From NCBI GenBank assembly GCA_000004985.1, contig GG738846.1: 64,000 nucleotides of DNA; one strand, written 5' to 3'. Numbering within the stretch: the stretch's first letter is position 1; each line of letters starts with the position of its first letter. This document shows, in pieces, positions 2,943 to 50,968 of this stretch. Below the pieces are notes generated by a model that saw only the letters and a program-made list of their open reading frames with translations, did no database searches and was not told the DNA's origin. The position numbers and the translations under genes are program-made. The stretch is from Naegleria gruberi. Its lineage: Eukaryota.

Positions 2943-5123
2943 ATGCTCCATCATCAACCAGTTGTTCATTCCTCTCATCAACCCTATTATCATCAATCAT
3001 CGGAAAACATAACACCAGAAAGATTAAAATTAAAACAACTGAAACACAGAGTTGCAACACCAAAGCCAGTGATTCATCCCTTTTTTCTATCGAGTCATGA
3101 ACAACAGCATGCACCACCTCCTCCATTCAATCATGATTTCGTGCCATTTGTAAAATATCCTCCAGAATATATGGAACCATATCAAACAGAACCTTATACC
3201 ATATCTACCCCGAACAAGGATCAAAATTATTATTATGTAAATCATCAACCACCACAACCCTTCGATATTCATCCTCATCACTTTGAACAACATTTAGATC
3301 ATCATGAAATGATAATACAACCCTCAAATCCTCCTCAATCATTCAACCATCAACAATTAATAGATGATCAATTGGATGAATTCAATATTGACCAACAATT
3401 TCAATCTGCATTCCCAATTGGCAGTGTTCCAGGAGTGGTAAAACAAGTTCTAGGTAGAGATGATATCCATAGTGAAAAGGAATCAACCCTTAATATTACA
3501 ACTGTAAATAGACCTTTGAGTTTAGATCCTCAACTTAATACACCTTTCAAAAAATTTATTGCAAAGGAGGAAGATTTAAAAATGGGAGAAAAGATTATTC
3601 TAATTGAAGACGAATCTGAGTCATCAGAAATTGAAGACGAATCTGAAGTGTCATCTATTAAATTAGAAGATCCTTCGTTTGTTATTGAACCTGGAAAAGT
3701 TTATGTAATTGACGATTCAGATGATGAAGATGTTACCTCCTCAAATGAGCAAGAGGATCACCAAAGCGATAATACAGATGAACAAAAAGAAGATTCTTAC
3801 GAACAAGAAAACCAAGAGGAAAGGGTGGAATCCGAAGATGAAGAATCATTTCATTTAATATCAGAAAGTATTGTTCACGAACAGACCCTTCCTACCCAAC
3901 CTAAATCACCAGAACATATCAAAAGCAGTCTTGAAATTGATCAGCATAATGCCAGAACCAACTTGTACCATTGGAGTTACGTGTTTCAATACAAACCAAA
4001 GGATGAATTAACTGTTTCTATACTAGGAAAAACTAATATTGATGGAAATAGAAATTTCACCACTTCCCCAATTGTTCATAGATTCAACTCTGATACTGTA
4101 CTTACTCTAAGTGGAACAAAATATGTGCTCACTTCCAGTTTTGATAGTTTGCGAAATCAAGAAAATAGTACTACAGTCAGTGCTGATTTTTTGAAACAAT
4201 TTACTGCTTCTTTGGATGGACCTTTCCCAAAGAATTGGAGAGAACTTATTGAAAAGGAATTTAAACGGTTAGAAGAACCAATATTGGGACCTGTTGAGTC
4301 TTCCAATAATTTCCAAAACGAAAATAATTTTGATTATCAAATAGATGAAACAAATGCAAGCCTCAAACAGGATAATAGCAGCAAAATTGAAGAACCGACC
4401 ACAAAAAAAAAGAGAAACTCAAGAAATAAGATATTTGAGGATCCACCTCAAAAGCCCTCAAAAACCAAAAAAAAAAGAAGAAAGAAATATGATACTAGCT
4501 CTGATGAGGACGAAGATACAGAGTATGCTGAATCACCTCAACCAGAGAATAAGAAAAGAAAGTCTATACAACAAACTCTTTCAAATAGCTTTACAAAGAA
4601 GGCCGATAATTCAATGTCTTTGACTGATGAGCTAAAATCAACAATGCTTGGTTGGAAAAAGAGATCCCATACATCCTCACCTCCAAAAATTCCTCTTGAC
4701 TCTATTAGAGAAATTCATCATGAAACAAACAACGATTTAGAGGATTACAAAATTAATCAACTACGAGAAGAACCACAAAAATACGAGAATAGAATTGATT
4801 ATTTTAAGGAAGACTTCTTTAATGAGATAGGTGGACTTTCGCAAGGAGAAGAGGAGGTAAATGAAAGATACAATGAAATCCAAGACGAGTCAATTTATGA
4901 AGAAAAAGAACCAACACCAAAGAAGAAAACAAAACGAAAGACTAGAAGAAAGACTAGAGAAACTGTAGAAAATTCAAATATTGTAGAGCAAGATCTAGAT
5001 CTTTCCATACCAAAAGTAATTATAGATACCCAGTTCTTTCCAAAAACACGTAAAAAACGTAAAACAAAAACTGTTTCTATGGATACAATACAAAAGGCTT
5101 GGTTTGGTGATTTGGAAGAGTAA
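2943..5123 (+). CDS. SANTA-domain protein, KNL2/M18BP1-like candidate centromere licensing factor, single exon, 726 aa
   Basis: Segment LYHWSYVFQYKPKDELTVSILGKTNIDGNRNFTTSPIVHRFNSDTVLTLSGTKYVLTS matches the SANTA domain pattern of KNL2/M18BP1 (W.......V.G.......F.SxPIV.R.....L.T..G..Y.L.G). The rest is acidic/basic low complexity (D/E/S runs, KKKRRKK) with a C-terminal basic stretch ending ...KTVSMDTIQKAWFGDLEE. Confidence 0.6.
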   Translation: MLHHQPVVHSSHQPYYHQSSENITPERLKLKQLKHRVATPKPVIHPFFLSSHEQQHAPPPPFNHDFVPFVKYPPEYMEPYQTEPYTISTPNKDQNYYYVNHQPPQPFDIHPHHFEQHLDHHEMIIQPSNPPQSFNHQQLIDDQLDEFNIDQQFQSAFPIGSVPGVVKQVLGRDDIHSEKESTLNITTVNRPLSLDPQLNTPFKKFIAKEEDLKMGEKIILIEDESESSEIEDESEVSSIKLEDPSFVIEPGKVYVIDDSDDEDVTSSNEQEDHQSDNTDEQKEDSYEQENQEERVESEDEESFHLISESIVHEQTLPTQPKSPEHIKSSLEIDQHNARTNLYHWSYVFQYKPKDELTVSILGKTNIDGNRNFTTSPIVHRFNSDTVLTLSGTKYVLTSSFDSLRNQENSTTVSADFLKQFTASLDGPFPKNWRELIEKEFKRLEEPILGPVESSNNFQNENNFDYQIDETNASLKQDNSSKIEEPTTKKKRNSRNKIFEDPPQKPSKTKKKRRKKYDTSSDEDEDTEYAESPQPENKKRKSIQQTLSNSFTKKADNSMSLTDELKSTMLGWKKRSHTSSPPKIPLDSIREIHHETNNDLEDYKINQLREEPQKYENRIDYFKEDFFNEIGGLSQGEEEVNERYNEIQDESIYEEKEPTPKKKTKRKTRRKTRETVENSNIVEQDLDLSIPKVIIDTQFFPKTRKKRKTKTVSMDTIQKAWFGDLEE

Positions 5124-5192: not shown

Positions 5193-6278
5193 TTAGAATG
5201 GGACAGCAAAAGTAATTACAAATTTCAACACCAAAGCAATAATAGCCAACAATAAGACAACACCCAAAATGAGGATTGCTAGAGCCATTGCTCCACATTT
5301 TTGGTACTTTTCGGATTGCTCCAATTCCTTATTTCCTTGACTGACATGTTCGAAAGTTGCTTCAATATTACGATCAATACGATCAAGTAAAGTTCCTTGC
5401 TCTACAACGAGTGATGAAAATTCTTTGAAAAGTTCGTTCAGTTCAACTATTGATGTCAAAATTTCTCTCAGTTCCTTGTCTCTTCTAATATTTTCCATTT
5501 CATTATCAATTAACATTTTGATCTGTTCGTCCGTAAAGCCTGGATCGAATTGCTTTTGTTCCAATGCTTCAATTCTTTCCTTTTCTTCTTCTGTCAAATC
5601 TTCTTCATTACTTTCAGCTCCACTTCCATTATCTTTGTAAATCATTACATTTTGTCTTCTTTGCTTGAGTGCTTTTAATTTTTGTAAATAATCTTGTTGT
5701 TGTTCACGGAATGCTTTGGAAAGTTCGTTCAATTCCATAACAAGAGCCGATTTTGTATTCTTTTTAATTATATCTTCTTGACTTGTAGGTTTGGCTGGCA
5801 ATACAATACGCTCTATGAACTGTTTTGATCTGACAAATAATCGTTTAATATCATCAGTTAGAATTTCAATTTCTCTTTCTTCCTCTGCAAAATTATTGCT
5901 CTTTTTTACACTAAAGGTACAATGTTGTTTATGCATTTGTGAGAGTTGTTCCACTAATTATTTATAAATATTATTATTATTATTAGAGGAATATTACTTA
6001 CTAAACTTTTTGATGGAATCAATATCAGTTTTTACATTTGTCAATACTTTATACCACAATGGAGCAGAGTTGCTATCGAATTGATCATCATTTCCTTGTT
6101 CTTCATCGGTAAGTGCTCCATTTTTCAAATTACTTGAAGGTGTATAATAGTTTAATTCAATTCCATCATCATCCTCCCCTAACGATGTTGAAAAGTATGA
6201 TTTACGAATATGATGGTAACGTCCCGTCAAGTCTCTACAAAGTATCGACTTCTTCATAAACGAAGCATTAACGCTCAT
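5193..6278 (-). CDS. STX16: Syntaxin-16/Tlg2-type Qa-SNARE, 2 exons (6278..6002, 5953..5193; intron 5954..6001, GTAAGT...AATTAG)
   Basis: N-terminal peptide MSVNASFMKKSILCRDLTGRY (SM-protein-binding N-peptide style). SNARE motif EQGTLLDRIDRNIEATFEHVSQGNKELEQSEKYQK matches STX16/Tlg2 (EQGTVLDRIDYNVEQS...AEQYQKK), followed by C-terminal TM ALAILILGVVLLLAIIALVL. The splice restores the frame (TTT A|gtaagt...ag|TG GAA). Confidence 0.7.
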
Positions 6279-6402: not shown

Positions 6403-7922
6403 CTAATCATTCGTTCTTGCAGTGGAAGGTGTATTAAATCTACTGACCATACTGGCCAAAGAGTTGTTCAACTTTGGTTGTTCTCTACTGGCTCTTAGAG
6501 GTGAAGTGACTTCACTGGTTGGGGCAGTTGTTTTTGAAGTCTTATTTGGAATTCCATTTATCTTGTCAAATAAAATTCGTAATACCTTTTCTTTTTCCTG
6601 CCATGAAAGAGAGGTGAAGGATGTATTATTTGGTGTTTCATTAGGAATGGTTGGAGTTTTTGAAATTGGGGGTAATACTACCTGAGAGTCTTCTTTGGCA
6701 TAAGTCACAACATTGGATTGACTCTTAATCTGCTCCTTTACTGAACCTAGGGCTTCGTTAAAAAACATTTCCAATTCTGTTCGTTGCTCAAGAAGACGTT
6801 TACCAATTTTTCGTAAATGTGCCAATTCTCTATTTCTCAATTGCACAATTTTTGTCAACTCTTCCTTTCCCTTCTCCAAATCTTTGACTTGATTTTCATA
6901 TTTTTCTTTCAAAATTTTCTTTTCCTCCTTAAATCTTTTTTCAATATCGACCATTACTTTTTCATTATCATATTTGTGATTCATTGTTCTCAATTCTTTA
7001 GAAAGCGAAAAACATTGTTTTGTATATTCTTTCAGCAAATCCTTGTTCATTTCTATTGTTCGGGAGAGGGTTTTGTTTTCCTGTTTGAATTGTTCCTTTT
7101 CTGAGGAACATTCCAATAATTGTTGTTCAGTCTCTTCTAATTTTAATTTCAACACTATATTTTCCTGGTATATTGATCTACTCTTTTCGTCAATTAGTTG
7201 AAGCGCTCGCTCTTCAACTTCCTTTTCAAACTGCTCTTGGAGACCATTCTCCTCCTTTCTTGATCTAATGGTTTCTCTAATAAATAATTGCTTTGATTTG
7301 GTTAGTTCAGAATCAAAAAACTTTCTTATTTGTTCATTTTCTTGTTCCTTCTCCTTATACAGTTTTTTCAATTTTTCCAACTCTTTCTATATTTATAGCT
7401 TAGAATAAGCATGTTACATTGCTCACTTACTTGAATATCATCCTTCTGATTGAGTCCTTTTTCTAACAAGCTCAATTCTGATGTTTTAGTTAGCAATTCC
7501 TGACTAAATTCTAGCTTCATTTCTTCTATTTGTATTTCTAGTTTTGAAATTTGGGATTTATGTTGTTGGTTTGATTCTGCATTCTCTTTTTGGAGCTGAA
7601 GAATAGTTTTGTTTTTTAACTCTAAATCTTTTCTTAAAAAGTTGGTCACTTGAATCTGGTAATATTGAATACGTAGTAAATTCGTGATCAAATTATCGGA
7701 GAACTAACTTACAGTCTCGGACTCTCTTTGCTTTAATTCTTCCTTAAAAGCTTCATGTTCTTGTTTTAATTTTTCATAGGCTTCCTTATAGGCAAGAAAT
7801 GTTTTAATTTTCGATTTTAAACCCTCAACTTCTAGAATTTTATTTTGTAATTCCTCTTGTGATTGACGAACTATGTCCTCCAAAGAGGGAGGAGGTGGTT
7901 GCTCATTACGTTTTGGAGGCAT
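6403..7922 (-). CDS. Coiled-coil protein, about 3 exons (ORF blocks 7922..7704, 7691..7368, 7380..6403), function unknown, possibly cilium/basal-body associated
   Basis: Start MPPKRNEQPPPP at 7922. Long heptad-rich E/K/Q sequence throughout. C-terminal motifs TELEMFFNEALGSVKEQIKSQ and LSWQEKEKVLRILFDKINGIP are reminiscent of ciliary coiled-coil proteins (family not pinned down). Exon junctions not resolved precisely. Confidence 0.45.
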
Positions 7923-7983
7923 TATTTTGTTTTTTTTCTGTAAATAATATTGGACATTTAAATAATCAATGGTTGTCACAAGT

Positions 7984-12511: not shown

Positions 12512-14089
12512 TTAATAATCCTTTGGCAATGAATTCATTGGATCTTCAAAATGGCTCTTCTTTTTTCTATATTCCTCCATTTCTTGCTCTGATATTTGAT
12601 AATTCGATTTTGAATATGGTGAACCAGTTTCTAACTTTCGCTTCTTTTCTTGTTGGATTGGATATGAGAATTCTGATTTTCTTATATTCTCATTTTGCTT
12701 ACTATTAATTGTTATTGGCTCCTCTTTGGTCGTTGTGCTAGTTTCCAAAATATTATTATTGGAGTTACAAAAACATTTTCTATCAAATTGACGACAACAT
12801 CTAAATCCCCATCCTTTGTTTGGATCCCAATGTGAACCAAAGACACTCGTGTGTCCATTATAGAATACATCCTCTTCATATTTACTCTTTATAGTAGCTT
12901 GGTGTTTACCTCCAATAATTCTACCACTTGTAGAGTATTCAGCATAATTTTCAGTTTGAGCAGTTACGTATTCTTGAGGCTTGTTTAAGAATTTTTCTCC
13001 TCCATATCTTTCTACTATTGCTTTTTTCCTAGTTTCTTCCAATTCTCTCTTCTTTTGTTTGAAATGTGAGTGGGCCATAAAGGCTTGTGAAGGCACTGAC
13101 GCAATATTAATATCCTCTCCTCTATTGACAGCATCCCACATAAACTTTTGGGCTTGAATAAACTCATTATACTCTCCAGTTTTCTTAGTGGCATTGTCGC
13201 CAGTATATGGAGCTTCTGAAGGATCAACAAAAGGTAAAGGGTTACCTCTCATAGAACGAGTTTTAGAATCATAGTGAGCACTATCTAATTCGAGATTGTA
13301 TAAATACTTTGGAATATCCTCTCTGGTACGAATTGATTGTGACACACTGGTAGTTTTCACTTCTTTTTTTCCACTTCTTCCAGATTTATCCAAATCTTCA
13401 TCTCCAGAATCTGATGATGAAAAATATTCATCATCACTAGAATCACTATTATTATTTTGTTTGTTTTCATTATCCTTTTCTTGATTACGTTGTTCTTTTT
13501 TCCTTTGTTTTTCTATCATTTTTTCATGAAGTTGACGATCCTTATTCTTCTTTCTTTCTTTTTCCAATTCTTGATGTACTTCCACAACCTCCTTTGCGTA
13601 TAGACTCGAGTCATACCCATTCCAATTATCTCTTTTGGCTTCAAAGCCCTTGACTTGAATATTGTGAATTAAATCATCGGGAGCAATGTCACTATTAGTA
13701 AGAGCAGCACCTTTTCTTCTAGGTCTTTCAGTGCACTCTTTTTCTTTATGGGTCATAGATCCACAATTCTTACAAGCACCTTTTCTGTATTTGGTGGCAG
13801 CTTGAATTTTTATTCCGCGATTGTACCAATTTCCAAACTCATCTTTTTCTTTTTCGGAATACCTCTGATGGTCTAAACTAGGAGCACCACGATCCAAGTA
13901 CCAAGGAGCTTGTTTAATGTATTGTGGAATGTGAGGATTGATGTCTCTTCCTTGTTCATCTTTTTCCGGCATTACGAGACCATTTTTACGAGCCTCTTCT
14001 ATTAATTGTTGTTTTTTATATTCATCTCTACTCAGACGTTGTGATGAAGCACTGGCAGATGGATTGCTCTTATTATTTGATGATGACAT
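12512..14089 (-). CDS. SLU7: Pre-mRNA splicing factor SLU7, single exon, 525 aa
   Basis: CCHC zinc knuckle KGACKNCGSMTHKEKEC. Conserved SLU7 blocks NWYNRGIKIQAATKYRKGA and RPRRKGAALTNSDIAPDDLIHNIQVKGFEAKRDNWNGYD. Confidence 0.9.
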   Translation of the reverse strand: MSSSNNKSNPSASASSQRLSRDEYKKQQLIEEARKNGLVMPEKDEQGRDINPHIPQYIKQAPWYLDRGAPSLDHQRYSEKEKDEFGNWYNRGIKIQAATKYRKGACKNCGSMTHKEKECTERPRRKGAALTNSDIAPDDLIHNIQVKGFEAKRDNWNGYDSSLYAKEVVEVHQELEKERKKNKDRQLHEKMIEKQRKKEQRNQEKDNENKQNNNSDSSDDEYFSSSDSGDEDLDKSGRSGKKEVKTTSVSQSIRTREDIPKYLYNLELDSAHYDSKTRSMRGNPLPFVDPSEAPYTGDNATKKTGEYNEFIQAQKFMWDAVNRGEDINIASVPSQAFMAHSHFKQKKRELEETRKKAIVERYGGEKFLNKPQEYVTAQTENYAEYSTSGRIIGGKHQATIKSKYEEDVFYNGHTSVFGSHWDPNKGWGFRCCRQFDRKCFCNSNNNILETSTTTKEEPITINSKQNENIRKSEFSYPIQQEKKRKLETGSPYSKSNYQISEQEMEEYRKKKSHFEDPMNSLPKDY

Positions 14090-14162
14090 TTTTTTGATAA
14101 AAAAATTTTAAAATAGAAATTTGGTTGAAGGGTAATCCCGCTAATTTCTATCTACAAAAAAA
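14090..14162. promoter_or_regulatory. About 73-bp divergent promoter region between SLU7 (minus) and LRR_cc gene (plus)
   Basis: Divergent start codons at 14089 (minus) and 14163 (plus) with an A/T-rich spacer. Confidence 0.3.
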
Positions 14163-16040
14163 ATGCTCAACCAAAGACTTCCTCCAACGAGAGGAGGGCA
14201 CAGAAGTAGAGCCTCTTCGGCTGCCAATCAAGAAAATGAATTACGACCTCCAAGTGTTGATCCTAGAGCACAAACTCCGGAAATACCTAACGATGATTTG
14301 GTAGCATCAAGACATGCTAGTGCATCCTCCTCTCTTGTACAAGCCTACAACAGGGCCAATCTTTCTAATTTAATACCTGGAGAAGCCAAACCAGCAAAAA
14401 CTCTTGGTTTATTAAAATCTCTTACTGCAGAACAAAAACCACAACGAGACTATATCAAGTATCCTTTTATGCTTTATGAAGATACAGATAGGTATTACTA
14501 TTCGGACAATGTTCAAGCTTTTTGGAATGAAACAAGATCAAATCTGGAGGAAAATCAAGAATCATTCAAGGATTTATCTTCTGGCGCTACTGATTTCGAG
14601 GATGGAGATGAACAATTGCGAGAGGAACTATTTTCTATTCATACCCAAACCAAAGCTAAAACACTCTGGGCAATTAGTAGTGGTATGTCTTCATTGGAAA
14701 AAACCTCTTCTCCCTTTACAAGGGAAGAGAAGGTTGTAAACTTGGATATGAGGGCAATTGTATCCTCTAGACCTGCTTCGTCTGGTTCAACAACAAGGTC
14801 AGCAAGAACTAGTCAATATATGGCAGGTCCATTTTCTGATTTAATTGATTCGGTTGATAATTCTGGAACTAAATTTAAACAAATTGATGACACAAAGGAT
14901 CACACAAAAAGAAGTTATATTATTAATGCAAGTGGAAGATCAATCTCTTCGATTTATCATCCAAATACTAAACGACCAAGCAGAATATCTAATTTTGTTG
15001 AGAATATGAGTATAACTAATGAGTCTTTATTTACTTTTATTTCAACAGAAAATGTGATAACGTTAGACCTTGAAAGATGCGTTGAAATAGATAATAAGGT
15101 GCTAAAAAGTATTGGAGAGTACTGTCCTAGGTTAAACTCTTTGAATTTACAACATTGTTCACAACTTCGTGACAGTACCATTAGAATCATTGTTAATGGA
15201 TGTTCTGATATTCAAAATCTAAATATTGGCATGTGTCATCTCGTTACAGATGAAAGTCTTGTTGAAATTTTCACACATTGCAGAAAACTAAGAGTGTTGT
15301 CTGTTCATTCATGTGAAATGATAACCGGAGAATTATCGTTCCGCATGACAAAGAATACGCCATTTTTGGAAGTATTGGATATTAGTTTTTGCACAAAATT
15401 TTCAGATATTGCACTTCAATTCTTGTCTGAGTACTGTACTAGATTGAAACATTTGGATGTAAGTGGTTGTCCTCTAATTCAAGATGAGGGACTGTTATCA
15501 ATCTGCAAGCATTGTCCTCAAATTGTAACAATGAGAACTACTATTTTATCCCAACCTACCATCACAAGTGATTCTCTTTCTTTCCTAACTAACTATGCCA
15601 GAAATTTAGAAGTTCTTGAACTTAGTGGAATATTTCAAATTAAGGATGAGTCTGTTGTGGAAATTTGTAAATATGGTCAACGCCTAGAATTTCTTTCTCT
15701 TAGTGGATGTCCAAATATTACAGACGATTCAATTAACGCAATTTCAGATCATTGCCAAAATTTACGTTGCTTAGAAGTTGCTGGGTGTAGGAAAATTAGT
15801 GTACAGGCTCTATTGGAACTCATTCACAAAGTAACCAAGTTAAGAAGATTGGTTGTTACTAGATGTAATATTTCAATTGAGGAATTAGACATTCTTAGAA
15901 AATTCACAAACGGAAGAGTTAATGTTGTCAAGCAAGAACCAATACCAAAAGAAAAAATTAAGGAGTACTTTACTGTTATTAAGGAAAAAGCAGTGAAAAA
16001 GAAAATATCTAAAAAGAAAGGAGAAAAGAAGAAGAAATAA
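14163..16040 (+). CDS. Cysteine-containing LRR (LRR_cc, FBXL/AMN1-type) protein, single exon, 625 aa, with N-terminal disordered region
   Basis: Repeated LxxCxxLxxLxLxxCxxITD units (LDLERCVEIDNKVLKSIGEYCPRLNSLNLQHCSQLRDSTI; LNIGMCHLVTDESL; LSLSGCPNITDDSINAISDHCQNLRCLEVAGCRKIS). No clear F-box seen. Confidence 0.65.
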   Translation: MLNQRLPPTRGGHRSRASSAANQENELRPPSVDPRAQTPEIPNDDLVASRHASASSSLVQAYNRANLSNLIPGEAKPAKTLGLLKSLTAEQKPQRDYIKYPFMLYEDTDRYYYSDNVQAFWNETRSNLEENQESFKDLSSGATDFEDGDEQLREELFSIHTQTKAKTLWAISSGMSSLEKTSSPFTREEKVVNLDMRAIVSSRPASSGSTTRSARTSQYMAGPFSDLIDSVDNSGTKFKQIDDTKDHTKRSYIINASGRSISSIYHPNTKRPSRISNFVENMSITNESLFTFISTENVITLDLERCVEIDNKVLKSIGEYCPRLNSLNLQHCSQLRDSTIRIIVNGCSDIQNLNIGMCHLVTDESLVEIFTHCRKLRVLSVHSCEMITGELSFRMTKNTPFLEVLDISFCTKFSDIALQFLSEYCTRLKHLDVSGCPLIQDEGLLSICKHCPQIVTMRTTILSQPTITSDSLSFLTNYARNLEVLELSGIFQIKDESVVEICKYGQRLEFLSLSGCPNITDDSINAISDHCQNLRCLEVAGCRKISVQALLELIHKVTKLRRLVVTRCNISIEELDILRKFTNGRVNVVKQEPIPKEKIKEYFTVIKEKAVKKKISKKKGEKKKK

Positions 16041-16137: not shown

Positions 16138-19100
16138 ATGCTAAACAATGGTATGTTGATTAATGTTTGCCATTGTATTCATGACTTTATAGCCTGGCAA
16201 CAGCCGTACGTAAACCTAGTAAAATTATGCTCCGAGAAGGGGAAACAACATTCTTGTGAAGGAGGAGTTACGCAAGAGATGGATCGAGACATCGGAAGAA
16301 CAGTATTCAGAATTAAAGGTTCTGTGCCATCAAATAACTATATTTCCTTTCCATCATCTATTCCTAAAAATAAGGGTGATGTGCTTGGTTTAATTGGTCA
16401 ATTTTGTTACGTAGAGTTGAGAGCTAATAGGGATGTATTTGTATTTCATGTTGAGATTATGACTAAGGATGAATTAACCTTTAGATTTTCTTTCGGAAAC
16501 ATTTCCAAACAATTCAAAGTAAGTTATCAAAGAGATCTCTTGTTTTAATTTCAATTAGAAAACTCATAATTCAATTTTCATACCCGTTGATTATCTGTCC
16601 GAGAGTTGGACTGTGCTTGCCATAGATTTTAAAGCTCTTGTTCAGACACACCTAGATAAAGTATTCAAATGTATTAGAGGCATAATTACTTGTTCAAACC
16701 TGTCATTGAAGAATGTATACACAAGTGACAATATCTATTCTACGGACACACTTACTAAAGACATGTTTCTTCCAGTTCCAAAAGGAAGTAGTTGGACTGA
16801 TCTTTATGAATGGCATTGGATTCCATCAGAACCAACAAATATCAAATTAGCATGTATTATTGACCCTCAAACTCTTAAAAAGCCTTCAACTAGTTTTAAT
16901 ACAAGTAGGACTTCATCAATTGGATCCGCCAACTCTAGACGATCAAAAATTACTGGTGTTTCTAATAAGAGTATGCTGACACCTTCTCCAATTTTGGATA
17001 TCAAACGTTTTATTGGATACAATTGTTACTATAATTCCAACTTGTGTTGGACTTTGGATTCAAATTACTGTATTTTCCCAAGTGGCTCATCAATTATCAA
17101 AATGGAAGTAGCTACAGGTAAGTAATTCTTTGATGGTGATGCTGAAAAATAATAGGAACCCAAACTGCTTTTCAAGGTCATACCCAATCCATCACCTCTA
17201 TTTGTACAGATTACAAATGTAGTATTATAGCAAGTATTCAGAATAATATTCCTCTGATTAGGTTATGGGATATCGAATCTGGGAGATGTTTATCTGTTTT
17301 AAAAGGTCAAGAGACTGAAATTAGTTGTGTTTGCATATCTGATAGTGGGAATGTAATGGTAACAATTGGAAAAGATAAATCTCTAAAGACTCAGTTTATT
17401 ATTTGGGATATTTCAAATATTAGAGATTCTGGTGAAGATGTTCCTATTATTTCTAAATATGTATGCGATTATTCAGTTCAAAAGGTCAAATTTGCTCCCA
17501 ATGAAGAAACTAAATTTGTTACTTGTGGAATGGAAAATATTAGATTGTGGAGATTGAAAGGTGGAATAGTTAGAGGTTGTTCACTCTCTCTGGAAAACTA
17601 TAGTCTAACAAAACAAAACTTTCTTGATATTGCTTTCGAAAAGGCATTTCTTTCTCCTCATGTAAGTATTTCAGGTTGATGAAACTTAAATGTTATTCTT
17701 AGTTAGGAGACAAAGACCACAGATTCTACTTAGGAACCGAATCAGGTGCTATTTATCAAGTAAATTATAATAAGAGAATAATAGAGTGTGTATTCCAACT
17801 TCATAACAGTGCAATCAATACTCTCTACATTAATGAAGGAATTTGTATTACAGGATCTGCTGATAAGTTTGTTAGAGTTTGGCCCCTAGATTTCTCTGAT
17901 TTTTTCATAGAGGCTGAATTGGAAAACTCTGTCACCAGTGTTGTGACATCTAAGGATGGATTCAAAGCTCTTATAGGAGACTCAAATGGATCTATTGGAA
18001 TTTTGGAAATAAGTACTCAGATCTACAGATCAGTACTACGATCTCACACAAAAACTGTTTTGGACGTAGTTAGTGATCCTAGTAGAATGGAGTTTGCTTC
18101 TGTGTCTCTTGATAGAACAATCAGAATTTGGGATCTTACAACTTTAAATCAAAAATATCAATTCGATATTGACGGAGAGAGCCCAATTTGTGTGGACTAC
18201 CACAAGACAGAGTACATGATAGCATGTGGATTCGAGTCTGGTATTGTAAGAATCTTTGAAGTCAACACAACCCAAGTTCTCGAAGAGTACAAGGCACACT
18301 TGTCTGATGTATTGGCCATAGCATACACATTTGATTCCAAGTGGCTAATCACCTCTTCCAAAGAATCTATTTGTATCTCAGATACCAAACACATGTACCA
18401 ACCCGTCAAGGTTATTCCCTACACATGTGAATGCAAAAGGGTGTGTTTATCATTGAGCAGAGATGGAAGATTCTTTGCATTTATTGGACCAAATAGAAAT
18501 ATTATACATGTGTACAGCTGTAAAGACTTTGAAGAAGTTTATATTTTCGAAACTCCAACCGACTTGTTCGAAGGAATAGTCTTTTCCTCTGATTCTAAGG
18601 AAATAATTGCATCCACTTCAGACAACAAGCTAATGGCCATTTGTTTGGAAAAAGGAGAAATTATTTCAGAAACTGTAAGTAGGTCGATTAGTTTGAAATT
18701 TACATCTTTATCAAAGGAATATTCAAGTAAAAACTATGCTGTAACACTAGACACAAGTCAAAATGGAAAATATTTAGTTACTGGAGGTGACGATAAATTA
18801 ATAAGGGTCTGGAACTCGAAAGACTTGGCCAACTTTAGCTGTCAAAAATTTGTTGGTCATTCTGGAGAAATTAAGAAGGTTCTTTTCAGTTCAGATTATG
18901 GTCATGTCATTAGTTGCGGAGATAATGGTATAATTGTTTGGAACTTCTTAGGAGACAAATCAAGAGATATTAATCTAATGATCGAAACACACTTGGAAAG
19001 AAAGATGATGGAAAAGAAAAAAAAGGAAGATTTTGAAGTTGATGATTTACCAAATAGATATAATGATCTTTTCTCTAAAGCTTTAGAGGAAAAGATGAGA

Positions 19101-21284
19101 CATGATATTGAGACACTTAAAGATGATCCTGCTGTTAAGGAAGATCCAAAAGAGGATCCTAAAACAACCACTTTACCGTCAAATGAACATAATAAGAATA
19201 TCATTACACCATTCAGACAATATAAGCTAAATAGACCTATCTCAAGAGTAACTGTGCGCGACAGAAATATGCCCACTGAAAACCCCTGCCTTAAATTAGG
19301 AAGAATTACTGGATATAATGGAAATGCCAGAGAGAACTTGATTTGGGATGAACCAAACAAACGTTTGATTTACACATCTGGAAATGTTATTATTATTGAA
19401 GATATCTTGACCAGACACCAACAATATCTTTTCGGTCATGAACATGAAATTAATGCACTAGCAATCCACCCAAACGGAAAAATATTGGCATCGTGTGGTG
19501 GGGTAAAAGGAATTACAATGGATTCACCAATTTTGTTTTGGAGTCTGGAAACAAACTCTGCTTTCAAGAAATTAGATTACCACAGATGGGGTGTTTTGGC
19601 AATGGACTTTTCTTATGACGGAAAGTATTTTGTTAGTGTTGGCGTCAATGAATATGATGAGAAAAACGTACTGGCTGTATGGTCTGTAGAAACTGGAAAA
19701 ATGATTGTTAATGCTATGGTTTCAGAGATAATCCATGCTGTAAAATGGTTTCCAACCTCTCCTTCATCAGAGTTTATTACCACAGGCAAAAATTCCATCA
19801 TTTTTTGGTATTTGAATCCAGAAGGGCAATTGCTAATGTCTCCAGCTAAGGTTGATGAAACATATGTGATAAGTGGAAATAGAGATGGAGAAACTATTAC
19901 TCACTATTCTTGCATTGGATTTAGTGAAGACTATAGAAGTGCTTGGGTTGGCTCAACACAAGGCTCAATTTATTGTTTTAATATTGAGACAAATGAACTC
20001 GAGTTCAAGTGGGTGGATGCTCACGATTCTGAGGTAGATTATGTTTATTGGAGGAAAAACACTGTTATCACAGCAGGAACAGACTGCCAAATCAAGAGGT
20101 GGAAGGTTAGCAAAAAAGACAAAATCTATACCATGATACTCAGGGAGCAAATGGAAGTTGATACACCAATTACTTCTGCTTATTTTGATAATGACAAGTG
20201 TAATCAAGGAGTAGTTGGAACGGCATCTGGAACTATTTGGTATATTAATTGGGAGCAGCAACAGTGCATTAGATTGATCAGTTGCCATTCAAATTTTGTT
20301 ACAGGAATTGTAAAGGTTAATGACTATCTTACTTCATGCTCTCATGATGGTTCTCTACGTATTTGGTCCAGAGTTGATGAAAATCAAGTAGTATCCTATA
20401 ACCAAATTCTTGAACTAAAGAGAGGAGAGACTAATCCCACCCCTGCACTCTGTATGTGTAACAGTACAACTAGTAACCTTGTAGCAGTAGGATTTTTGGA
20501 TGGATCGATCTATATTAATTATCTTAATGATCTCGAAAATGTTTTAAAGAACAAGATAAGACCTCATGAAGAAGCAATAACATGTATAGCTCTAACACCA
20601 AGCAACAGAATCATCACAGGAAGTGCAGGTGGTTTAATTACTATTGTTGATAATTTAGTTAATATTTCAGAAGATACCTCACTGGCACCTACAGAATTTT
20701 TGGAAAATAGATTTGTATTTATCAAGGAGTTTTTAGGTCACAGATTATGTTCTCTTGATTATGATGCTAAATCAAGACGATTTGTAAATACAACTGCCAC
20801 AGGCCTCGTGTCTGTTTGGAATGAGAATGACTTGTCTCAAGTTGCCAAGTTTGCCCCACATATTTATACCAGAAAGGTTGCAGAAAAGGAAAAGTATGAA
20901 GTGGATATCATTGCCAAATTCTCTCCTTTTGATTCAGATTTATTATTGATTACTGCTCCTTCTAAAGGTACCCCCAAGATTGAGTTTTACAATTATAAGA
21001 GGGAATATTGTGTTAAAGTTGTCGACTTGAATAGATTTGTCAGTTGTTTTGCTGTGTCTGTAAAACACAAATTAATTGCATTTGGTTCTAGAGAAAGAAT
21101 GGTAGCTATAATGGACTATGATAGTGGTGAGTTTGAAGAATATGAAGCTCATGGAGATTGTGTTAAATCTATCATGTTCGATGATACTACCGATCAAGTC
21201 TTATCCTCTGGGTTTTCTGATTTGGTTGTGTGGAAAGTCGGCTCATCAAGACCATCAGGTAAAAATATCAACACAACAAACTAA
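16138..21284 (+). CDS. WDR90: WDR90/POC16 orthologue (N-terminal CFAP20/DUF667 domain + many WD40 repeats), 4 exons: 16138..16518, 16604..17117, 17156..17661, 17704..21284
   Basis: CFAP20-like domain: GRTVFRIKGSVPSNNYISFPSS...LGLIGQFCYVELRANRDVFVFHVEIMTKDELTFRFSFGNISKQFK | SWTVLAIDFKALVQTHLDKVFKCIRGIITCSNLSLKNVYTSDNIY...FLPVPKGSSWTDLY aligns block-for-block with the human WDR90 N-terminus. WD40 region: IRLWDIESGRCLSVLKG, FVRVWPLDFSDFFIEAE, RTIRIWDLTTLNQ, etc. Introns 85, 38 and 42 nt. Confidence 0.85.
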
Positions 21285-23028: not shown

Positions 23029-24661
23029 TTATTTTCTCTTCAGATTAAAATAGGAAAAAATTGGGTTACCAAGAACTGGTTCTTTTGGAATGGTAACTGT
23101 TTGATTTTGAGGTTGATAACCATCCTTTGATACTTGAATAGTAAAGGTTCCAGGAGGTAACAATCTCCAGAAAAATCCATTAGAATTAGAATTAATAATC
23201 TTTGCATTATTAATTACAGTTACATTAGCTCCAATAACTGCATTTCCAATATCATCTGAAACAATACCAACTGCAGAATACTTCAATTGATCCATATAAG
23301 CAATTAGAGCGTCCTTATTTTGATCCCAATATCCATCTAAGTGATCTTCAGGAGCAATATACTCCTCAGTCAACTCTAAAGTAAGTTCATAACAATTAGC
23401 TCCAAAGTAATTATAATCGGCCATGGAATGTCTGAATAAAATTCGAATTAATCTAAAAATGAAAAAGAAAAGCTTACCTAACAACCCACCATTGGGCACC
23501 ATTGGTAATACCTCCTGGGAATCTCTTACTCAAGTGCATAACAGTGTTAGTGTCTGCATAAACTGATGCAACTTGTTTGAAGAAGGTATCATCAGGTGTG
23601 GCAGAATAATTACAATCCTTTGACAAGGCAGTATCGAAAGGATAGTTAGCAACAACTACACCTCCATGTAGATTGGCTGACAAAATAAATGATTCCTTTG
23701 AAATCCAGTTCAAAACTGCAATAGTTTCTGGTTGGAATGGATCATCAGGCTTACCAAAATAAAAGTCTGGGAAGTTTCTATTCAAATCAACACCGTTTGC
23801 ATTTCTTCTTTGTTTAAGCTCATAACCATCAGGGTTCATAGATGGCATAATATAAACATCCATATAATCAAGAATGGAAGTTACTCTTACATCACCAGCA
23901 TTATACAAGTTCAAGAGATATTCAATAAAATAGAGAATTACTTCTCTTCCAACAGTTTCGTTACCGTGCATGTTTGCAATATATTTGAACTTTGGTTTTT
24001 CATATCTCAAGTTTGTATTTGGTCTACCAATAACTTTTGTACCAAAAAGTTTCATAACCCATAATTCTCTTTGTTGGACTGATTGACCAACAGAGAAGAG
24101 TACAGATAAATGAGGATTGGCAGCGTTGAGAGCCTTCAATTTAGCTGTCATTTGCACATAGTCATGATTTGAAAGCAAATTCTTTGCTGCTCTTTTGTCA
24201 AGGGAGGATTTTCTTGTTGTGGTATTGAATAATCTTTTAACAATGATTGGAGTCTTGCTCTTACTTTCTGCATTAATTTCATCAATTTGATGTTCCAATC
24301 TGTGTACTTGATTTTCATTCTTCATTTCAACAATGAACATTCTTTCTTTTTGTAATTGTTGAGCGAGAGATGAAAGAAAGTCATTTCCATTCCCAATTAA
24401 CATCTTGTCGAGTGGTTTTCTAATTCTAATAGAGGCCTTATCAAACATTTTTGCGTGTCTTCCTTCAACAAAAACTTTTTCTAATTCTTGTCTATTTAAT
24501 CCCATTACTAGTACAGAAAATTCAGACAACATTCCTGCACTGCTAGTGCCCGTATGTAATGTTATCTTTGTAGAGGATGAGTGAATTAAAATCATCACGG
24601 TCATCATCATTATTATGCCCTTCATCAGATGCACTGATGAAAATCGTTGTTGTTGTTTCAT
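23029..24661 (-). CDS. Secreted zinc carboxypeptidase, M14B (CPD/CPE/CPN-like) with C-terminal transthyretin-like regulatory domain, 2 exons: 24661..23478, 23431..23029
   Basis: Signal peptide MKQQQRFSSVHLMKGIIMMMTVMILIHSSS. Zn-binding/catalytic blocks YIANMHGNETVGREVILYFIEYL, NANGVDLNRNFPDFYFG, MNPDGYE. TTR-like domain GIVSDDIGNAVIGANVTVIN...GFFWRLLPPGTFTIQVSKDGYQPQNQTVTIP. Intron 23432..23477 (GTAAGC...TTCAG). Confidence 0.8.
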
Positions 24662-33730: not shown

Positions 33731-36700
33731 ATGTCTTCTATTGATGTTGTGGGATGTCAACTTGGAGTAGTTACCAATACTCTTATCCGTATTGCAATAT
33801 TTCCCATCGGTAAAATTAATGCCTCAACATTTAAAAAGTTTGTATCAATGATACAAGCTTGTGATTCAAAGCCGATCAAAAGTTTGACCAGATTCAGAGA
33901 TGATAATTTAAAAAGTCCTTTTCAAAAGCAGGATTGGTCTCGATCTGTTTTAAAATTTCAATTTGTTGACGAAACAAGTATTAATACAGGATATTCGGAT
34001 TTCCATCAATATAGAAACGTTCACGGAGTGATTGGTATTATGAGTTGCTTGAGTGAGGAATCTGTTGCTAGTGGATTTACAAAATACAAAAAGCAAAAAT
34101 TACAACTATACGGAAAGAATATTGTGGGAAGATGCTTTGCAGTAGAGCAAGATCCTGAAACAATGGCTCCTGAGGATGAAGAATTGGTGGTAATTCCTAA
34201 TCAAGATGAAAATCATGTTGGATGTCATATTGATTATTTATTTTCTGATTTGGCAAGACAAATACTGATCAGATTTGAAAAAATTGTTTCAAATCCTTCT
34301 GCCTATTTCAATGAATTATCAAATACGTATTTAATGACCTCTCCATCTGGTCTTTTCCCAACAAGTAATAATAGTAGTAATAATACCAAAAAGCCAGCAA
34401 CCCCAGCCAAAACAAAAGTTGATACACAAACCATTCCCACTTCACAATCGTCAACCAATCTTTCCCTTGGAGATGAGAAAAATTTACAAAACATGAAATT
34501 ATTTGCAGATTCCTCTCTTTTAATTTGCGATTATGAGGATGCCATGACTACCTATCAAGAAATTAGTAACATTTGTAAGATGCAATTGAACAATACTACA
34601 AGTGCAGCTATCAACTACCCTTTATATCAGGCTGGTGCAGCCGAAGGTATGGCTTCCATCATTTTTGTAAAGTCAAGACTTGCACAAAAGTCTGAGGTTG
34701 ATAGCTCCATAGTTCAACAAATCTATGATTTGATTCAAGAATCTATTCAATTTTATGAAAAATCTAAAAAGAAAGATCTTTTAGTGGAAACCTACATTAA
34801 AATGGCTGTATTCATCTCAGGGTATTGCGAAAAAAAGAAGAGAAAGGAAGCACTAGACTGTCTAACAAAGGCTGTTCAATCTGCTGATTCTTTAACAACT
34901 CAAGAGAAGGTATGTTTAAATTTTTAGAATCCAATAATTCATATTAATGAAATAATAACAGATTGTTGTTTCTGGGTTTGCAGCCAAAATTTGCAAGCAA
35001 ATGAAATGTAAAAGAAAGTTTGGATTTTTCTTGAGACAAGTAGCAGTTCTTCATCATGAATTGTGCAACCAAGGTGTTTCAATTAGATTGGGATCCCAAT
35101 TTATGGATGCTTATAACATTCCAATTGAGCTAACATCACGTACAGGTTAGTATTACAATATTCCAATTAATTGTGCTATATTGTACTTTGTTATTGTCTT
35201 TATTAATATAGAATGGAAAACAAAAAAGAATTTTTCACTCAAAGGATGGCATTTTATTCAAATGGATGTTATCAAAAGCATGATTGATTTTGCACAATCA
35301 ATGAGTCCAGCTGATTATTGCACAGAAATTCAATTTAGATTTTATCTCTTATCAGAGTATGGACAAATTATGTCTAAAACAACTCAAGAGGAACATTTGA
35401 AGCGTATATTATCTGTTTCTCACCAAATACCTAAAGGCATAAATATTCTGTTAAAGCCTCTTCCAATCATCAAAATGGTTGCTCCTCAAAAATTACCTTC
35501 ACACTTGGAACCAAAGTCACTGGAAATCAAAGATAACAGACCTCAATTGTTTATTTATTCTCCATTTGACAAGAAGGATGAAAGATTGGTAACTTTAAAT
35601 TGGGCAAAAAATGAAACTGCACAAACACTAGTTGAATTTTACAATCCATACAAGATTGATTTACGCTTAAAGAATGTATCGGTAAAGTACAAACCTGAGA
35701 TTTCTCCAATTAATGAAAGTGGAGAACCTATTTGTGACGTATTTGTTCACTCAGCTGTGGTTGCGAGTGGGCAATCTCAAAAGGTTTTTGTAGCAACTAA
35801 ACCTAGAGCAGTTGGAAGTATTATTCTTGATTCAATTGGAATAGAATTTGAAGAAGGTAGATTTAAATCACCAGTCTATCTTCCAATAACAACCCAACAC
35901 CTCGTAAATGAAAAAAAAGAAAGGAGAGACTATGATATCACCGTTGTAGAGACTGTTCCACTTCTTAATGTAACTCTTTCAACACCTCAACTATCTCTTG
36001 TTGATGGAGAAACAACTACACTCTTTGCAAAGCTTCATAACACTGGTAATTGTGAGATTACCTTCCTTGAAATTACATTTAACAATCAAACAGCAAACAC
36101 TGTTTCAATTAAGGACGAAATTATCAAAAAGTATCTTCCGCTTGTTCCAGATGCTGATGTTGTAACAATTCCAATTGAAGTAGTTGGAGTATGGAAAGGA
36201 TCAAGTGATCTAGGTATTATTAATATTCATATCAAATATGGTATTGAAAAACAAGATCCTAATGAAAAATCTTATTATAGAGAGATGGACCTTTCCATTA
36301 AAACAACAGTAATGAGGGCTGTTGCTGTTGAAGATTGTATAACAGTTAACGAATCATTCAATAAGAAGATTGTGGCTAAAATTCACAACTATTCCAATTC
36401 TTCCTTTATGTTATTGTCTAGCCTCTCCCAACATTTAAAGGATGAGCAATTTGATACAGGAATACCTTTTGGTGCTCAGTCTACCAAAATGATTCTTGTT
36501 GATCCTTCCATTCTTCATGATATCAATTTTGAAGATTTGAATATTCCATACACATCAGATATCAATAGATATAAGGGAACAATAGCAAATGCAATGAGAT
36601 GGAAATCTGTAAGTAATTATTCTAATATATCATAATAGTTAATCATTCATAGTATGTCAACACGATTGGTATTGTTGGTTGTAAGAAAGAGAGTGAAGAA

Positions 36701-46398: not shown

Positions 46399-47220
46399 TT
46401 ACATTCTTCTTCTTTTATTACCTGGATCGGAGTCATCTTCAGTTGTAGATGTATTATCATTATTTGAACTCTCTGAAATATAATTTTTATCACCATACTG
46501 CAGTTTGTAGGTGCCAAGTGATTTGTGTTTCCAATCTATGAAGGATGTTTCTTCTAATTGAATCATTTGTAAAATGGTTAATTCGCTATTGCACAATTTT
46601 GACTTGAATTCCGAGTATTGTTCAGTGAGCCAGCTGCTGGTACTCTTCTGATTACTGGCAATATAGCCTTGTCGTAAAAAGACCTTAAATCTATGTACAA
46701 GTGTATCTATTAGAGTATACCTTTTTCGAATATAGAGAGACTCTAATTCTTGATCTTGTTTGATTGATTCTGCAATTTCAGCCATTAATTTGAATAGACT
46801 TGTGCCAAAATCATAAAAGTATCTGTTAACTTTTGATAGAGATGCTTTTTCAAAGTTGGATGTGACATAGTTCAAGTCTGTAAAAACTCTAGGTACCTCA
46901 ACTTCAACAAATCCCTCTTTTCCACACACAGAAGCCAACCAAAACGGTACCTCAACTTTAGTTCCTCTTTCAATTATATATTTTTCAATAAATTTAATGG
47001 AATTGTTATTTTCCTCTTCTATTTCATCTTCGGAATGATCTTGATTTCCATTGGTTATTTGACGAAGATGTTCTTTTTGCATAGCTGCTGCAGTTTTAAT
47101 ATATTTTCCAATGTTTGGAATGGTGAAATTAAATATCACAGCAACACGTTCTTCACTTGCAAGAATATCATCAATGTCAAAGTAGTCCCTTCCATTGTTC
47201 AATCCATCAACGGCAGACAT
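46399..47220 (-). CDS. GINS3: GINS complex subunit PSF3 (GINS3), replicative CMG helicase component
   Basis: MSAVDGLNNGRDYFDIDDILASEERVAVIFNFTIPNIGKY and EVPFWLASVCGKEGFVEVEVPRVF match PSF3 (FSLDDILMSQEKLPC...ELPLWLAKGLF...SVELPKIY). Probable start is the MSAVDG Met at 47220 (the ORF track begins upstream at 47313). Confidence 0.7.
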   Translation of the reverse strand: MSAVDGLNNGRDYFDIDDILASEERVAVIFNFTIPNIGKYIKTAAAMQKEHLRQITNGNQDHSEDEIEEENNNSIKFIEKYIIERGTKVEVPFWLASVCGKEGFVEVEVPRVFTDLNYVTSNFEKASLSKVNRYFYDFGTSLFKLMAEIAESIKQDQELESLYIRKRYTLIDTLVHRFKVFLRQGYIASNQKSTSSWLTEQYSEFKSKLCNSELTILQMIQLEETSFIDWKHKSLGTYKLQYGDKNYISESSNNDNTSTTEDDSDPGNKRRRM

Positions 47221-47387
47221 TTTTTTATTATTACTAACTGTTAAAATTGGCGCCACATCTCTTCCGCCAAAATAAAACTCTTTTAAAAAAAAATTAAATA
47301 ATACTGGTTTCAATCACACAACGTCTTCATCATCACAATACATTTTATATATACAGGAACAATTGAGGATAATAATATTATTATTTA

Positions 47388-50300: not shown

Positions 50301-50968
50301 CATCAATAGCCAAATACAAGATTGATAAAAATCCGCATCAGGTATACCGATGCCTATTCGAAATATCAGAAATAGCTAGACTAAAGCCCTCCACAGATAA
50401 TGTTTGGCAGATATCATTTGCAAAATTATTATTTTATTTATTTGATCTCTTTTTTGATGATGATGAAATTATAAGGGAAAAGGCCTTATTGAGTGTTGCC
50501 TCTCTATTGAGATATCAAATTGAACATTGTATCAAGTTTACAGACATTACTTTTAGAAAGATTATGGAAAAACTAAACGATAATGTTCCAGCTGTGCAAA
50601 GAACTGCAGAGAGAGTGGCTGAACAATTTGTTGAATCTATTGAGCCAATCAAAACTTTGGAACTTTTAAAACCACAAATTATTAATAATAGCGAAAAAGA
50701 GCAAATCTTACTTGGAGGCTTACGTCTTCTCACCAAACTAATCAAACTGATAAGTCCAGATATTCTTTTAGGTCATGTTCCAAGCATTTTACCTGGAGTT
50801 TATGAAGCTTTTAAACACAGCAATGTAGATGTACGGAAATCCGTTGTCTATTTAATGGTAGATTTACATTTCTCTCTTGGAGAGTTGTTTGAGCCATATC
50901 TGAAGAGGTTATCTATTGAACAGCAAAAACTTATTCAAATTTACATAAAAAAGAACGAAGTGAGATAG
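47388..50968 (+). CDS. CLASP1: CLASP (CLIP-associating protein) orthologue, TOG-domain microtubule regulator, 4 exons: 47388..47427, 47463..47547, 47593..50081, about 50141..50968
   Basis: Spliced N-terminus MDITPIIEQIQTK|A MYYRNKKDPTERIQGLTHLTNSMLDIAL|DDISSVMNAIRP ~ human ...AQVQQKDVGGRLQVGQELLLYL. TOG1: NFKVCEASLTFLCTFLEHIDAKIFQPYFIDFVNLLLERFGDTKVSVRDKAFEAIIMVARHY...IHKSWRVREGVCLSFVQILQTFG...LLDDSTPSVRDSAILGICEIYRFVG aligns closely with CLASP1 (SYVAMVIVALIDRMGDAKDKVRDEAQTLILKLM...FKHKNFRSREGVCLCLIETLNIFG...FGDSNSQVRDAAILAIVEIYRHVG). C-terminal TOG-like ILLGHVPSILPGVYEAFKHSNVDVRKSVVYLMVDLHFSLGELFEPYLKRLSIEQQKLIQIYIKK ~ CLASP C-terminus. First intron only 35 nt. Confidence 0.85.

Follow-up and report, generated by a model that had tools for sequence, protein, structure and literature searches.

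A SANTA-domain protein of Naegleria gruberi as a candidate CENP-A licensing factor of the KNL2/M18BP1 family

Does Naegleria gruberi possess a CENP-A licensing factor of the KNL2/M18BP1 family, a family whose studied members, to our knowledge, all come from animals or plants? The question is raised by a gene at positions 2943..5123 (+ strand) of a 64,000-nucleotide stretch of N. gruberi DNA (GenBank assembly GCA_000004985.1, contig GG738846.1), referred to as a whole as the window. An earlier note, made from the sequence alone, had read this gene as an acidic open reading frame (ORF) of 726 residues with a SANTA domain, in the DNA of a compact-genome protist. We recovered the same coordinates, start and length, and the source agrees with that description, the window having about 33% G+C and densely packed eukaryotic genes. 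The ORF opens with ATG and encodes 726 residues plus a stop. Its product was identical over its full length (100% identity) to the deposited protein NAEGRDRAFT_45577 (EFC50013.1, XP_002682757.1, UniProt D2UZX8). Thus, the complete single-exon coding sequence agrees with the public annotation, in which XP_002682757.1 is labelled “predicted protein” by NCBI and already carries a precomputed PF09133 tag. In the MAFFT alignment, the start of the protein (M-[LI]..HHQP) was also found in the N. lovaniensis orthologue. The protein is acidic, with an isoelectric point (pI) of 5.17, and its composition is uneven: the N-terminus is rich in Q, H and P, residues 205-301 are rich in D and E, and several Lys/Arg clusters lie in the C-terminal half. 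All the peptides quoted in the earlier note, including the C-terminal KKRKTKTVSMDTIQKAWFGDLEE, are found in it.

The SANTA domain of this protein is genuine, far beyond chance. Its fold occupies residues ~338-445 (3954..4277, + strand), and the hidden Markov model (HMM) search against Pfam matched PF09133 at residues 340-434, over profile positions 2-91 out of 92 (35.8 bits, the gathering score being 21; E=1.1e-08). The earlier note had called the domain well formed and the only recognisable one, and the Pfam scan (E<=1) likewise found SANTA as the sole real domain in the 726 residues. The hallmark motifs of SANTA are an N-terminal VxLxDW and a C-terminal GFx7FxxGFPxxW (Zhang 2006, as cited in PMC9210943). 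Both were read directly from the N. gruberi protein, as TNLYHW (residues 339-344) and DFLKQFTASLDGPFPKNW (residues 415-432), with identical spacing. Two positions deviate, Gly being replaced by Asp and Phe by Leu, while FP and W are invariant, the human sequence included.

Querying 1.84 billion cluster representatives with residues 330-460 using phmmer, we matched four proteins, the query included. Orthologues were found in N. lovaniensis (XP_044556000.1, 945 residues, E=1.6e-28, 48% identity), where the UniRef name is “SANTA domain-containing protein”, and in Willaertia magna (KAL9650358.1, 1244 residues, E=3e-10). The fourth match was an unnamed protein of 356 residues with two SANTA copies. 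All four pass the Pfam SANTA threshold, the two orthologues doing so on their own with 35.6 bits (N. lovaniensis) and 33.1 bits (W. magna). A single SANTA protein per heterolobosean species was recovered among these 50%-identity cluster representatives, which leaves room for paralogues. An N. fowleri orthologue was absent from the phmmer listing, presumably because clustering at 50% identity had placed it with N. lovaniensis. Word-index searches returned only the query or nothing, whether run with the whole protein, its SANTA segment or an alignment of five SANTA sequences. This failure is explained by low-complexity regions that swamp the index and by the divergence of the domain, and the exhaustive phmmer search did find the orthologues.

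The unnamed protein comes from a Logan contig (SRR12141609, 35-1105) and consists of two tandem SANTA domains and little else (Pfam 106.7 bits over 2 stretches). This tandem architecture was not described in the KNL2 literature that we examined.

A profile built from the heterolobosean SANTA sequences retrieved one significant chain from the PDB, the SANTA domain of human M18BP1 (9R6H, E=1.9e-11), aligned over 110 of 122 profile positions. Seven positions (W344, G362, Y394, L396, F428, P429 and W432) are invariant in the alignment of human and heterolobosean SANTA domains. The predicted fold also matched 9R6H. Its beta-sandwich core leads into three helices, of which the last is the longest, in agreement with the crystallographers' description. 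These fold comparisons used an alignment-based model, in which the first 8 residues (328-335) have low predicted local distance difference test (pLDDT) values; the single-sequence AlphaFold model was unusable (pLDDT 44.8). In a search of the viral folds in BFVD, small phage proteins were matched, but only weakly (E>=2.7e-3, TM-score below 0.45), which is uninformative here and fits the remark of the authors of the first crystal structure, who found no close structural counterpart of SANTA among other proteins (PMC12953894). Could the match still be a chance similarity in a lineage-specific low-complexity protein? Much of the protein is indeed compositionally biased (Q/H/P-, D/E- and K-rich), and the word-index searches gave no relatives. 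However, the SANTA match lies in the only segment that is non-biased and well folded, and independent sequence, profile and fold evidence all lead to the SANTA domain of M18BP1. We give this explanation, which the earlier note had raised against itself, next to no probability; the significant HMM match, the profile and the fold exclude it.

SANTA is the hallmark of the KNL2/M18BP1 family. Because of this, and because the domain lacks close structural homologues elsewhere, assignment to the family is the natural one, as judged from sequence. Those of the family's defining features that lend themselves to in silico testing, namely the domain, its motifs and its fold, are present in the Naegleria protein, and the KNL2/M18BP1-like identity that the earlier note proposed is accordingly retained. 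In human M18BP1, six SANTA surface residues (W413, H414, E420, R421, S431 and K468) have been proposed as a binding interface and are needed for centromere recruitment (PMC12953894). In the alignment, R421 corresponds to the invariant R380, S431 to S390 and K468 to R433, and the place of W413 is taken by F372 in N. gruberi and by Tyr in N. lovaniensis and W. magna. This interface thus appears to be kept in part. In the tandem-SANTA protein, both copies have Trp-Lys at the W413/H414 position.

The architecture of the protein is SANTA-only: the N-terminal half is long and disordered, SANTA lies centrally and is preceded by a conserved extension, and the C-terminal half is lysine-rich. Within the N-terminal half, an acidic D/E/S-rich tract (residues 205-301, 3555..3845, + strand) has a net charge of -10 and -19 in two blocks of 50 residues and is probably disordered. 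It can be aligned to N. lovaniensis, since it lies inside the one significant BLASTP high-scoring segment pair (HSP) between the two Naegleria proteins (residues 98-473, E=4e-42). Nearer the start there is a short linear motif with a proline-directed Thr, RVATPKPV (residues 36-43, 3048..3071, + strand). The pattern R-x-[AV]-T-P-x-P-[IV] occurs once each in N. gruberi (residue 36), N. lovaniensis (140) and W. magna (134), and the three instances are aligned by MAFFT. We suggest that this motif is a candidate docking site regulated by cyclin-dependent kinase (CDK), possibly for Mis18.

The pre-SANTA extension comprises residues 303-329 (FHLISESIVHEQTLPTQPKSPEHIKSS; 3849..3929, + strand) and contains a conserved Ser322-Pro. 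Directly upstream of SANTA, the pattern Q-x-[KRH]-S-P-x-x-I-x-S was found once in each protein (residue 319 in N. gruberi, 465 in N. lovaniensis and 592 in W. magna), preceded by a conserved [HM][LM]IS patch. The BLASTP HSP with W. magna begins at residue 309, about 30 residues ahead of the Pfam SANTA match, and the extension is therefore part of the conserved unit. The human pre-SANTA sequence CKIVL-x-T346-PRLHI resembles SIV…S322-PEHI of Naegleria, a lead only, as the stretch is too short for statistics.

A further motif follows the domain, around Trp571 (…LKSTMLGWKKRSHTSSPPK…; 4608..4694, + strand), and includes an S/T-P-P site. The pattern W[KR]K.{3,6}[ST]PP was found in N. gruberi (residue 571) and N. 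lovaniensis (residue 800), and not in W. magna. A proline-directed Ser or Thr is thus present in all three short motifs, N-terminal, pre-SANTA and post-SANTA. Two basic clusters were identified by composition, the first at residues 485-515 (PTTKKKRNSRNK...KTKKKRRKK; 4395..4487, + strand) and the second at residues 659-671 (PKKKTKRKTRRKT; 4917..4955, + strand). In the alignment, both orthologues have K/R-rich blocks at the place equivalent to the first cluster. Judging from plant KNL2, whose C-terminal parts bind DNA (PMC9210943), this cluster may be a nuclear localisation signal (NLS) and/or a region of non-specific DNA binding.

The C-terminal tail (residues 701-726, KTRKKRKTKTVSMDTIQKAWFGDLEE; 5043..5120, + strand) consists of a basic run and a short acidic end. 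The earlier note had suggested, as a speculation, that the sequence KKRKTKTVSMDTIQKAWFGDLEE may be a degenerate CENP-C-like motif. Such a motif, like those of plant alphaKNL2 and chicken KNL2, would make direct contact with the CENP-A nucleosome. Two observations are in line with this idea: W720-F721, which follows the basic run, is the only Trp-containing aromatic pair in the protein, and when the residues of the protein are shuffled, the loose pattern of a basic run plus an aromatic pair arises in only 1.1% of cases. The core of the CENP-C/KNL2 motif comprises an Arg anchor on the H2A/H2B acidic patch, seven residues, a [FYW]-W pair holding the C-terminal tail of CENP-A and, about 8 residues beyond the pair, an Asp for the RG loop (PMC10015371). 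Examples given there are R527, F535/W536 and D544 in ggKNL2, R659 and Y667/W668 in chicken CENP-C, and R522 and W530/W531 in human CENP-C. In plants, the CENPC-k consensus is KRSRSGRV/LLVSPLEFW, in which R and W are essential (PMC9210943). The Naegleria tail fits neither. The position of the Arg anchor is occupied by V711 or S712 (taking A719-W720 or W720-F721 as the pair), the aromatic residues are in reversed order (W-F and not [FYW]-W), Pro is missing, and the chain stops at residue 726, short of the equivalent of Asp544.

The orthologues agree with this. Four CENP-C core patterns of decreasing stringency, including R-x7-[FYW]-W, had 0 matches anywhere in the three heterolobosean proteins. 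Trp720 is not conserved, the only Trp residues being at 490, 578 and 800 in N. lovaniensis and at 616, 686 and 710 in W. magna, the two orthologues on which this C-terminal comparison rests. Between the two Naegleria species, BLASTP detected no significant similarity in the C-terminal half of the protein, and Pfam found nothing in the tail. A phmmer search of all PDB chains with the last 45 residues gave only non-significant matches to lysine boxes in eIF2-beta and no CENP-C/KNL2 peptide. A loose pattern, “IP-basic run-[LM]D-x-[IL]-x-K”, is common to the tails of N. gruberi and N. lovaniensis, and is most simply explained as an NLS-like basic run. The CENP-C-like tail, as far as sequence can tell, is already largely refuted, and we consider it very improbable.

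What, then, does the protein do? Our preferred reading, which we hold to be probable though by no means secure, is that it is a SANTA-only CENP-A licensing factor of the KNL2/M18BP1 family. Its centromeric function is suggested by family membership, and the case draws on sequence, the modelled fold and analogy with studied relatives. In human M18BP1, SANTA is the only indispensable centromere-targeting element and works together with the disordered pre-SANTA region, in which Motif 1 binds CENP-C's cupin domain, a binding enhanced by CDK phosphorylation at T346 (PMC12953894). According to a preprint on the Naegleria kinetochore (10.64898/2026.08.18.745565), CENP-A as well as CENP-C is found at kinetochore foci in this organism, and all other constitutive centromere-associated network (CCAN) subunits have seemingly been lost. 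If the Naegleria protein works in a similar way, the basic clusters would drive nuclear import, and the pre-SANTA extension and SANTA would dock on CENP-A chromatin. The likeliest partners would be, as for human M18BP1, CENP-C and/or the SANTA ligand. The basic C-terminal half may assist docking through multivalent, non-specific contacts with DNA, as in plant KNL2. The docked protein would then recruit Mis18 and/or a CENP-A chaperone and so license the deposition of new CENP-A, with Thr39-Pro, Ser322-Pro and Ser579-Pro as candidate cell-cycle (CDK) switches.

Several points weigh against a licensing role. Both known direct readers of the CENP-A nucleosome in the family, CENPC-k and SANT/Myb, are absent from the protein. 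Two residues of the proposed human SANTA interface are not conserved, H414 corresponding to T373 and E420 to H379 in N. gruberi. The direct ligand of SANTA is not known even in humans (PMC12953894), and the CENP-HIKM subunits of the CCAN, which help to recruit human M18BP1, are apparently lacking in Naegleria (10.64898/2026.08.18.745565). In the literature searched, we found no publication that names the gene by any accession, and none that pairs Naegleria with Mis18. Moreover, M18BP1 also acts outside licensing, in the loading of condensin II (PMC12953894), and family membership therefore does not fix function. The protein could thus be a true SANTA protein with another chromatin job, for instance in loading condensin II, in compacting chromosomes or in general targeting to chromatin, and not be needed for CENP-A deposition. 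We think this unlikely, though it deserves some weight. The SANTA proteins studied in human, Xenopus, chicken, C. elegans and Arabidopsis (alpha and beta KNL2) are all centromeric, and all are needed for CENP-A/CENH3 loading (PMC9210943, PMC13294675, PMC12953894). Even the SANTA-only plant betaKNL2 still localises to centromeres (PMC13294675).

The licensing reading can be extended, tentatively, to a stronger proposal. The heterolobosean KNL2 protein, with no SANT/Myb, no CENPC-k and no CCAN beyond CENP-C to rely on, might represent an ancestral minimal licensing module, in which a CDK-gated pre-SANTA extension and SANTA suffice for centromere recognition and RxxTPxPI is the Mis18 dock. We regard this as a rather doubtful extension. 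If it were true, the logic by which human pre-SANTA and SANTA are recruited to CENP-C would date to the last common ancestor of eukaryotes, and Naegleria would offer a stripped-down system for finding the SANTA ligand.

The SANTA domain has been taken to be pan-eukaryotic since 2006. Given that view, held from the first description of the domain, and the public PF09133 tag on the protein, an unstudied member of a known family in Naegleria will not surprise a specialist, and the gene is of modest interest. Nevertheless, a clear group of orthologues in Heterolobosea (Discoba) extends the range known for the KNL2/M18BP1 family and, in our own view, favours an early eukaryotic origin of the family. 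The Mis18 complex is not covered in the large survey of kinetochores by van Hooff et al. In the text of the Naegleria kinetochore preprint (10.64898/2026.08.18.745565) there is no mention of KNL2, M18BP1, Mis18, HJURP or any CENP-A loading factor, and the gene is thus a ready candidate for the missing licensing step, open to experiment in an emerging system. Being naturally minimal, the protein also lends itself to a search for the SANTA ligand.

The gene is closely flanked on both sides. Upstream, a signal peptide peptidase gene (1880-2905, + strand) ends in TAA at 2903-2905, leaving 37 bp before the ATG at 2943 on the same strand, so that the KNL2-like promoter must overlap the 3′ end of the peptidase gene. 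Downstream, a convergent SNARE/syntaxin gene (5193-5954, - strand), with a RasGEF beyond it, leaves 69 bp between the two stops, and the two 3′ untranslated regions must therefore be very short or overlapping. The order is not conserved at the N. lovaniensis orthologue (PYSW02000001.1, 662962-681799), where the neighbours are an ADH, an unknown protein of 306 residues and an mRNA cap methyltransferase. As these are unrelated, synteny gives no support either way. Among 36 other ORFs of the window, the Pfam scan found no CENP-A (histone fold), Mis18/Yippee or other kinetochore gene.

Other window genes were identified mainly by Pfam. A homologue of CLASP, with a TOG domain besides CLASP_N (E=1.7e-46), is encoded at 47611-50085 (+ strand), possibly continuing to 50489-50968. 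CLASP is a microtubule plus-end and kinetochore-associated regulator; the gene is about 42 kb from the KNL2-like gene, with no evidence of functional linkage. A GINS Psf3-like ORF was also found (46399-47313, - strand). A protein with a Zn(2)-Cys(6) binuclear cluster, a domain usually regarded as fungus-specific, is encoded at 53014-53706 (- strand; E=6.8e-09), and a second Zn_clus protein was found near the N. lovaniensis KNL2 orthologue, at 13280-15991 (- strand) of that locus. TRAPPC9/Trs120 is matched twice at 33731-36635 (+ strand), by one ORF over profile positions 5-217 and by another over 558-869. At 23029-24661 (- strand), ORFs for an M14 carboxypeptidase and for CarboxypepD_reg overlap, and the ORF list has three consecutive coiled-coil ORFs at 6403-7979 (- strand). 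Genes split over adjacent ORFs probably reflect introns that interrupt the reading frames. A large multi-propeller WD40 protein (17919-21284, + strand), matching the WDR90/POC16 and EML propeller models, adjoins a partial CFAP20 (CFA20) match (16613-17125, + strand; profile positions 132-183 of 185, E=8e-06). Both genes are related to centrioles or flagella, which fits the amoeba-to-flagellate biology of Naegleria.

Compared with known family members, the Naegleria protein has a reduced domain content. Pfam detected no SANT/Myb domain in N. gruberi (E<=1) or in the two orthologues (E<=0.1). SANT/Myb and CENPC-k, both lacking here, are accessory elements that are not universal in the family, SANT/Myb being also absent from plant KNL2. 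CENPC-k is carried by Arabidopsis alphaKNL2 and by chicken and Xenopus KNL2, unlike the Naegleria protein; SANTA is common to all of these, and a role in CENP-A/CENH3 loading is presumed to be shared. KNL2 homologues bearing CENPC-k have also been noted in chytrids and cryptomonads (PMC9210943). Human M18BP1 is longer (1132 residues against 726) and, unlike the Naegleria protein, has a SANT/Myb domain. No similarity to its N-terminal Mis18alpha/beta-binding region was detectable in the Naegleria protein, and one of its receptors, CENP-HIKM, is seemingly lacking in Naegleria. C. elegans KNL-2 is a SANTA-containing CENP-A loading factor in an animal with no CCAN beyond CENP-C and no HJURP (PMC8351560). 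It resembles the Naegleria case as a SANTA protein in an organism with a reduced inner kinetochore, but it has a C-terminal Myb/SANT domain, not found in the Naegleria protein, and binds the N-terminal tail of CENP-A.

The closest architecture is that of Arabidopsis betaKNL2 (and the deltaKNL2 of grasses), in which SANTA is the only recognisable domain and both CENPC-k and SANT/Myb are missing. In betaKNL2, the basic C-terminal part contributes to binding DNA and to localisation in the nucleus, and together with SANTA it is required for centromere targeting (PMC13294675, PMC9210943). However, SANTA is N-terminal in plant KNL2 and central in Naegleria, and betaKNL2 depends partly on its CENPC-k-bearing paralogue alphaKNL2. 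Thus, the Naegleria protein is closest to plant betaKNL2/deltaKNL2 in domain content, and closest to human M18BP1 in that SANTA lies centrally and the pre-SANTA extension is conserved.

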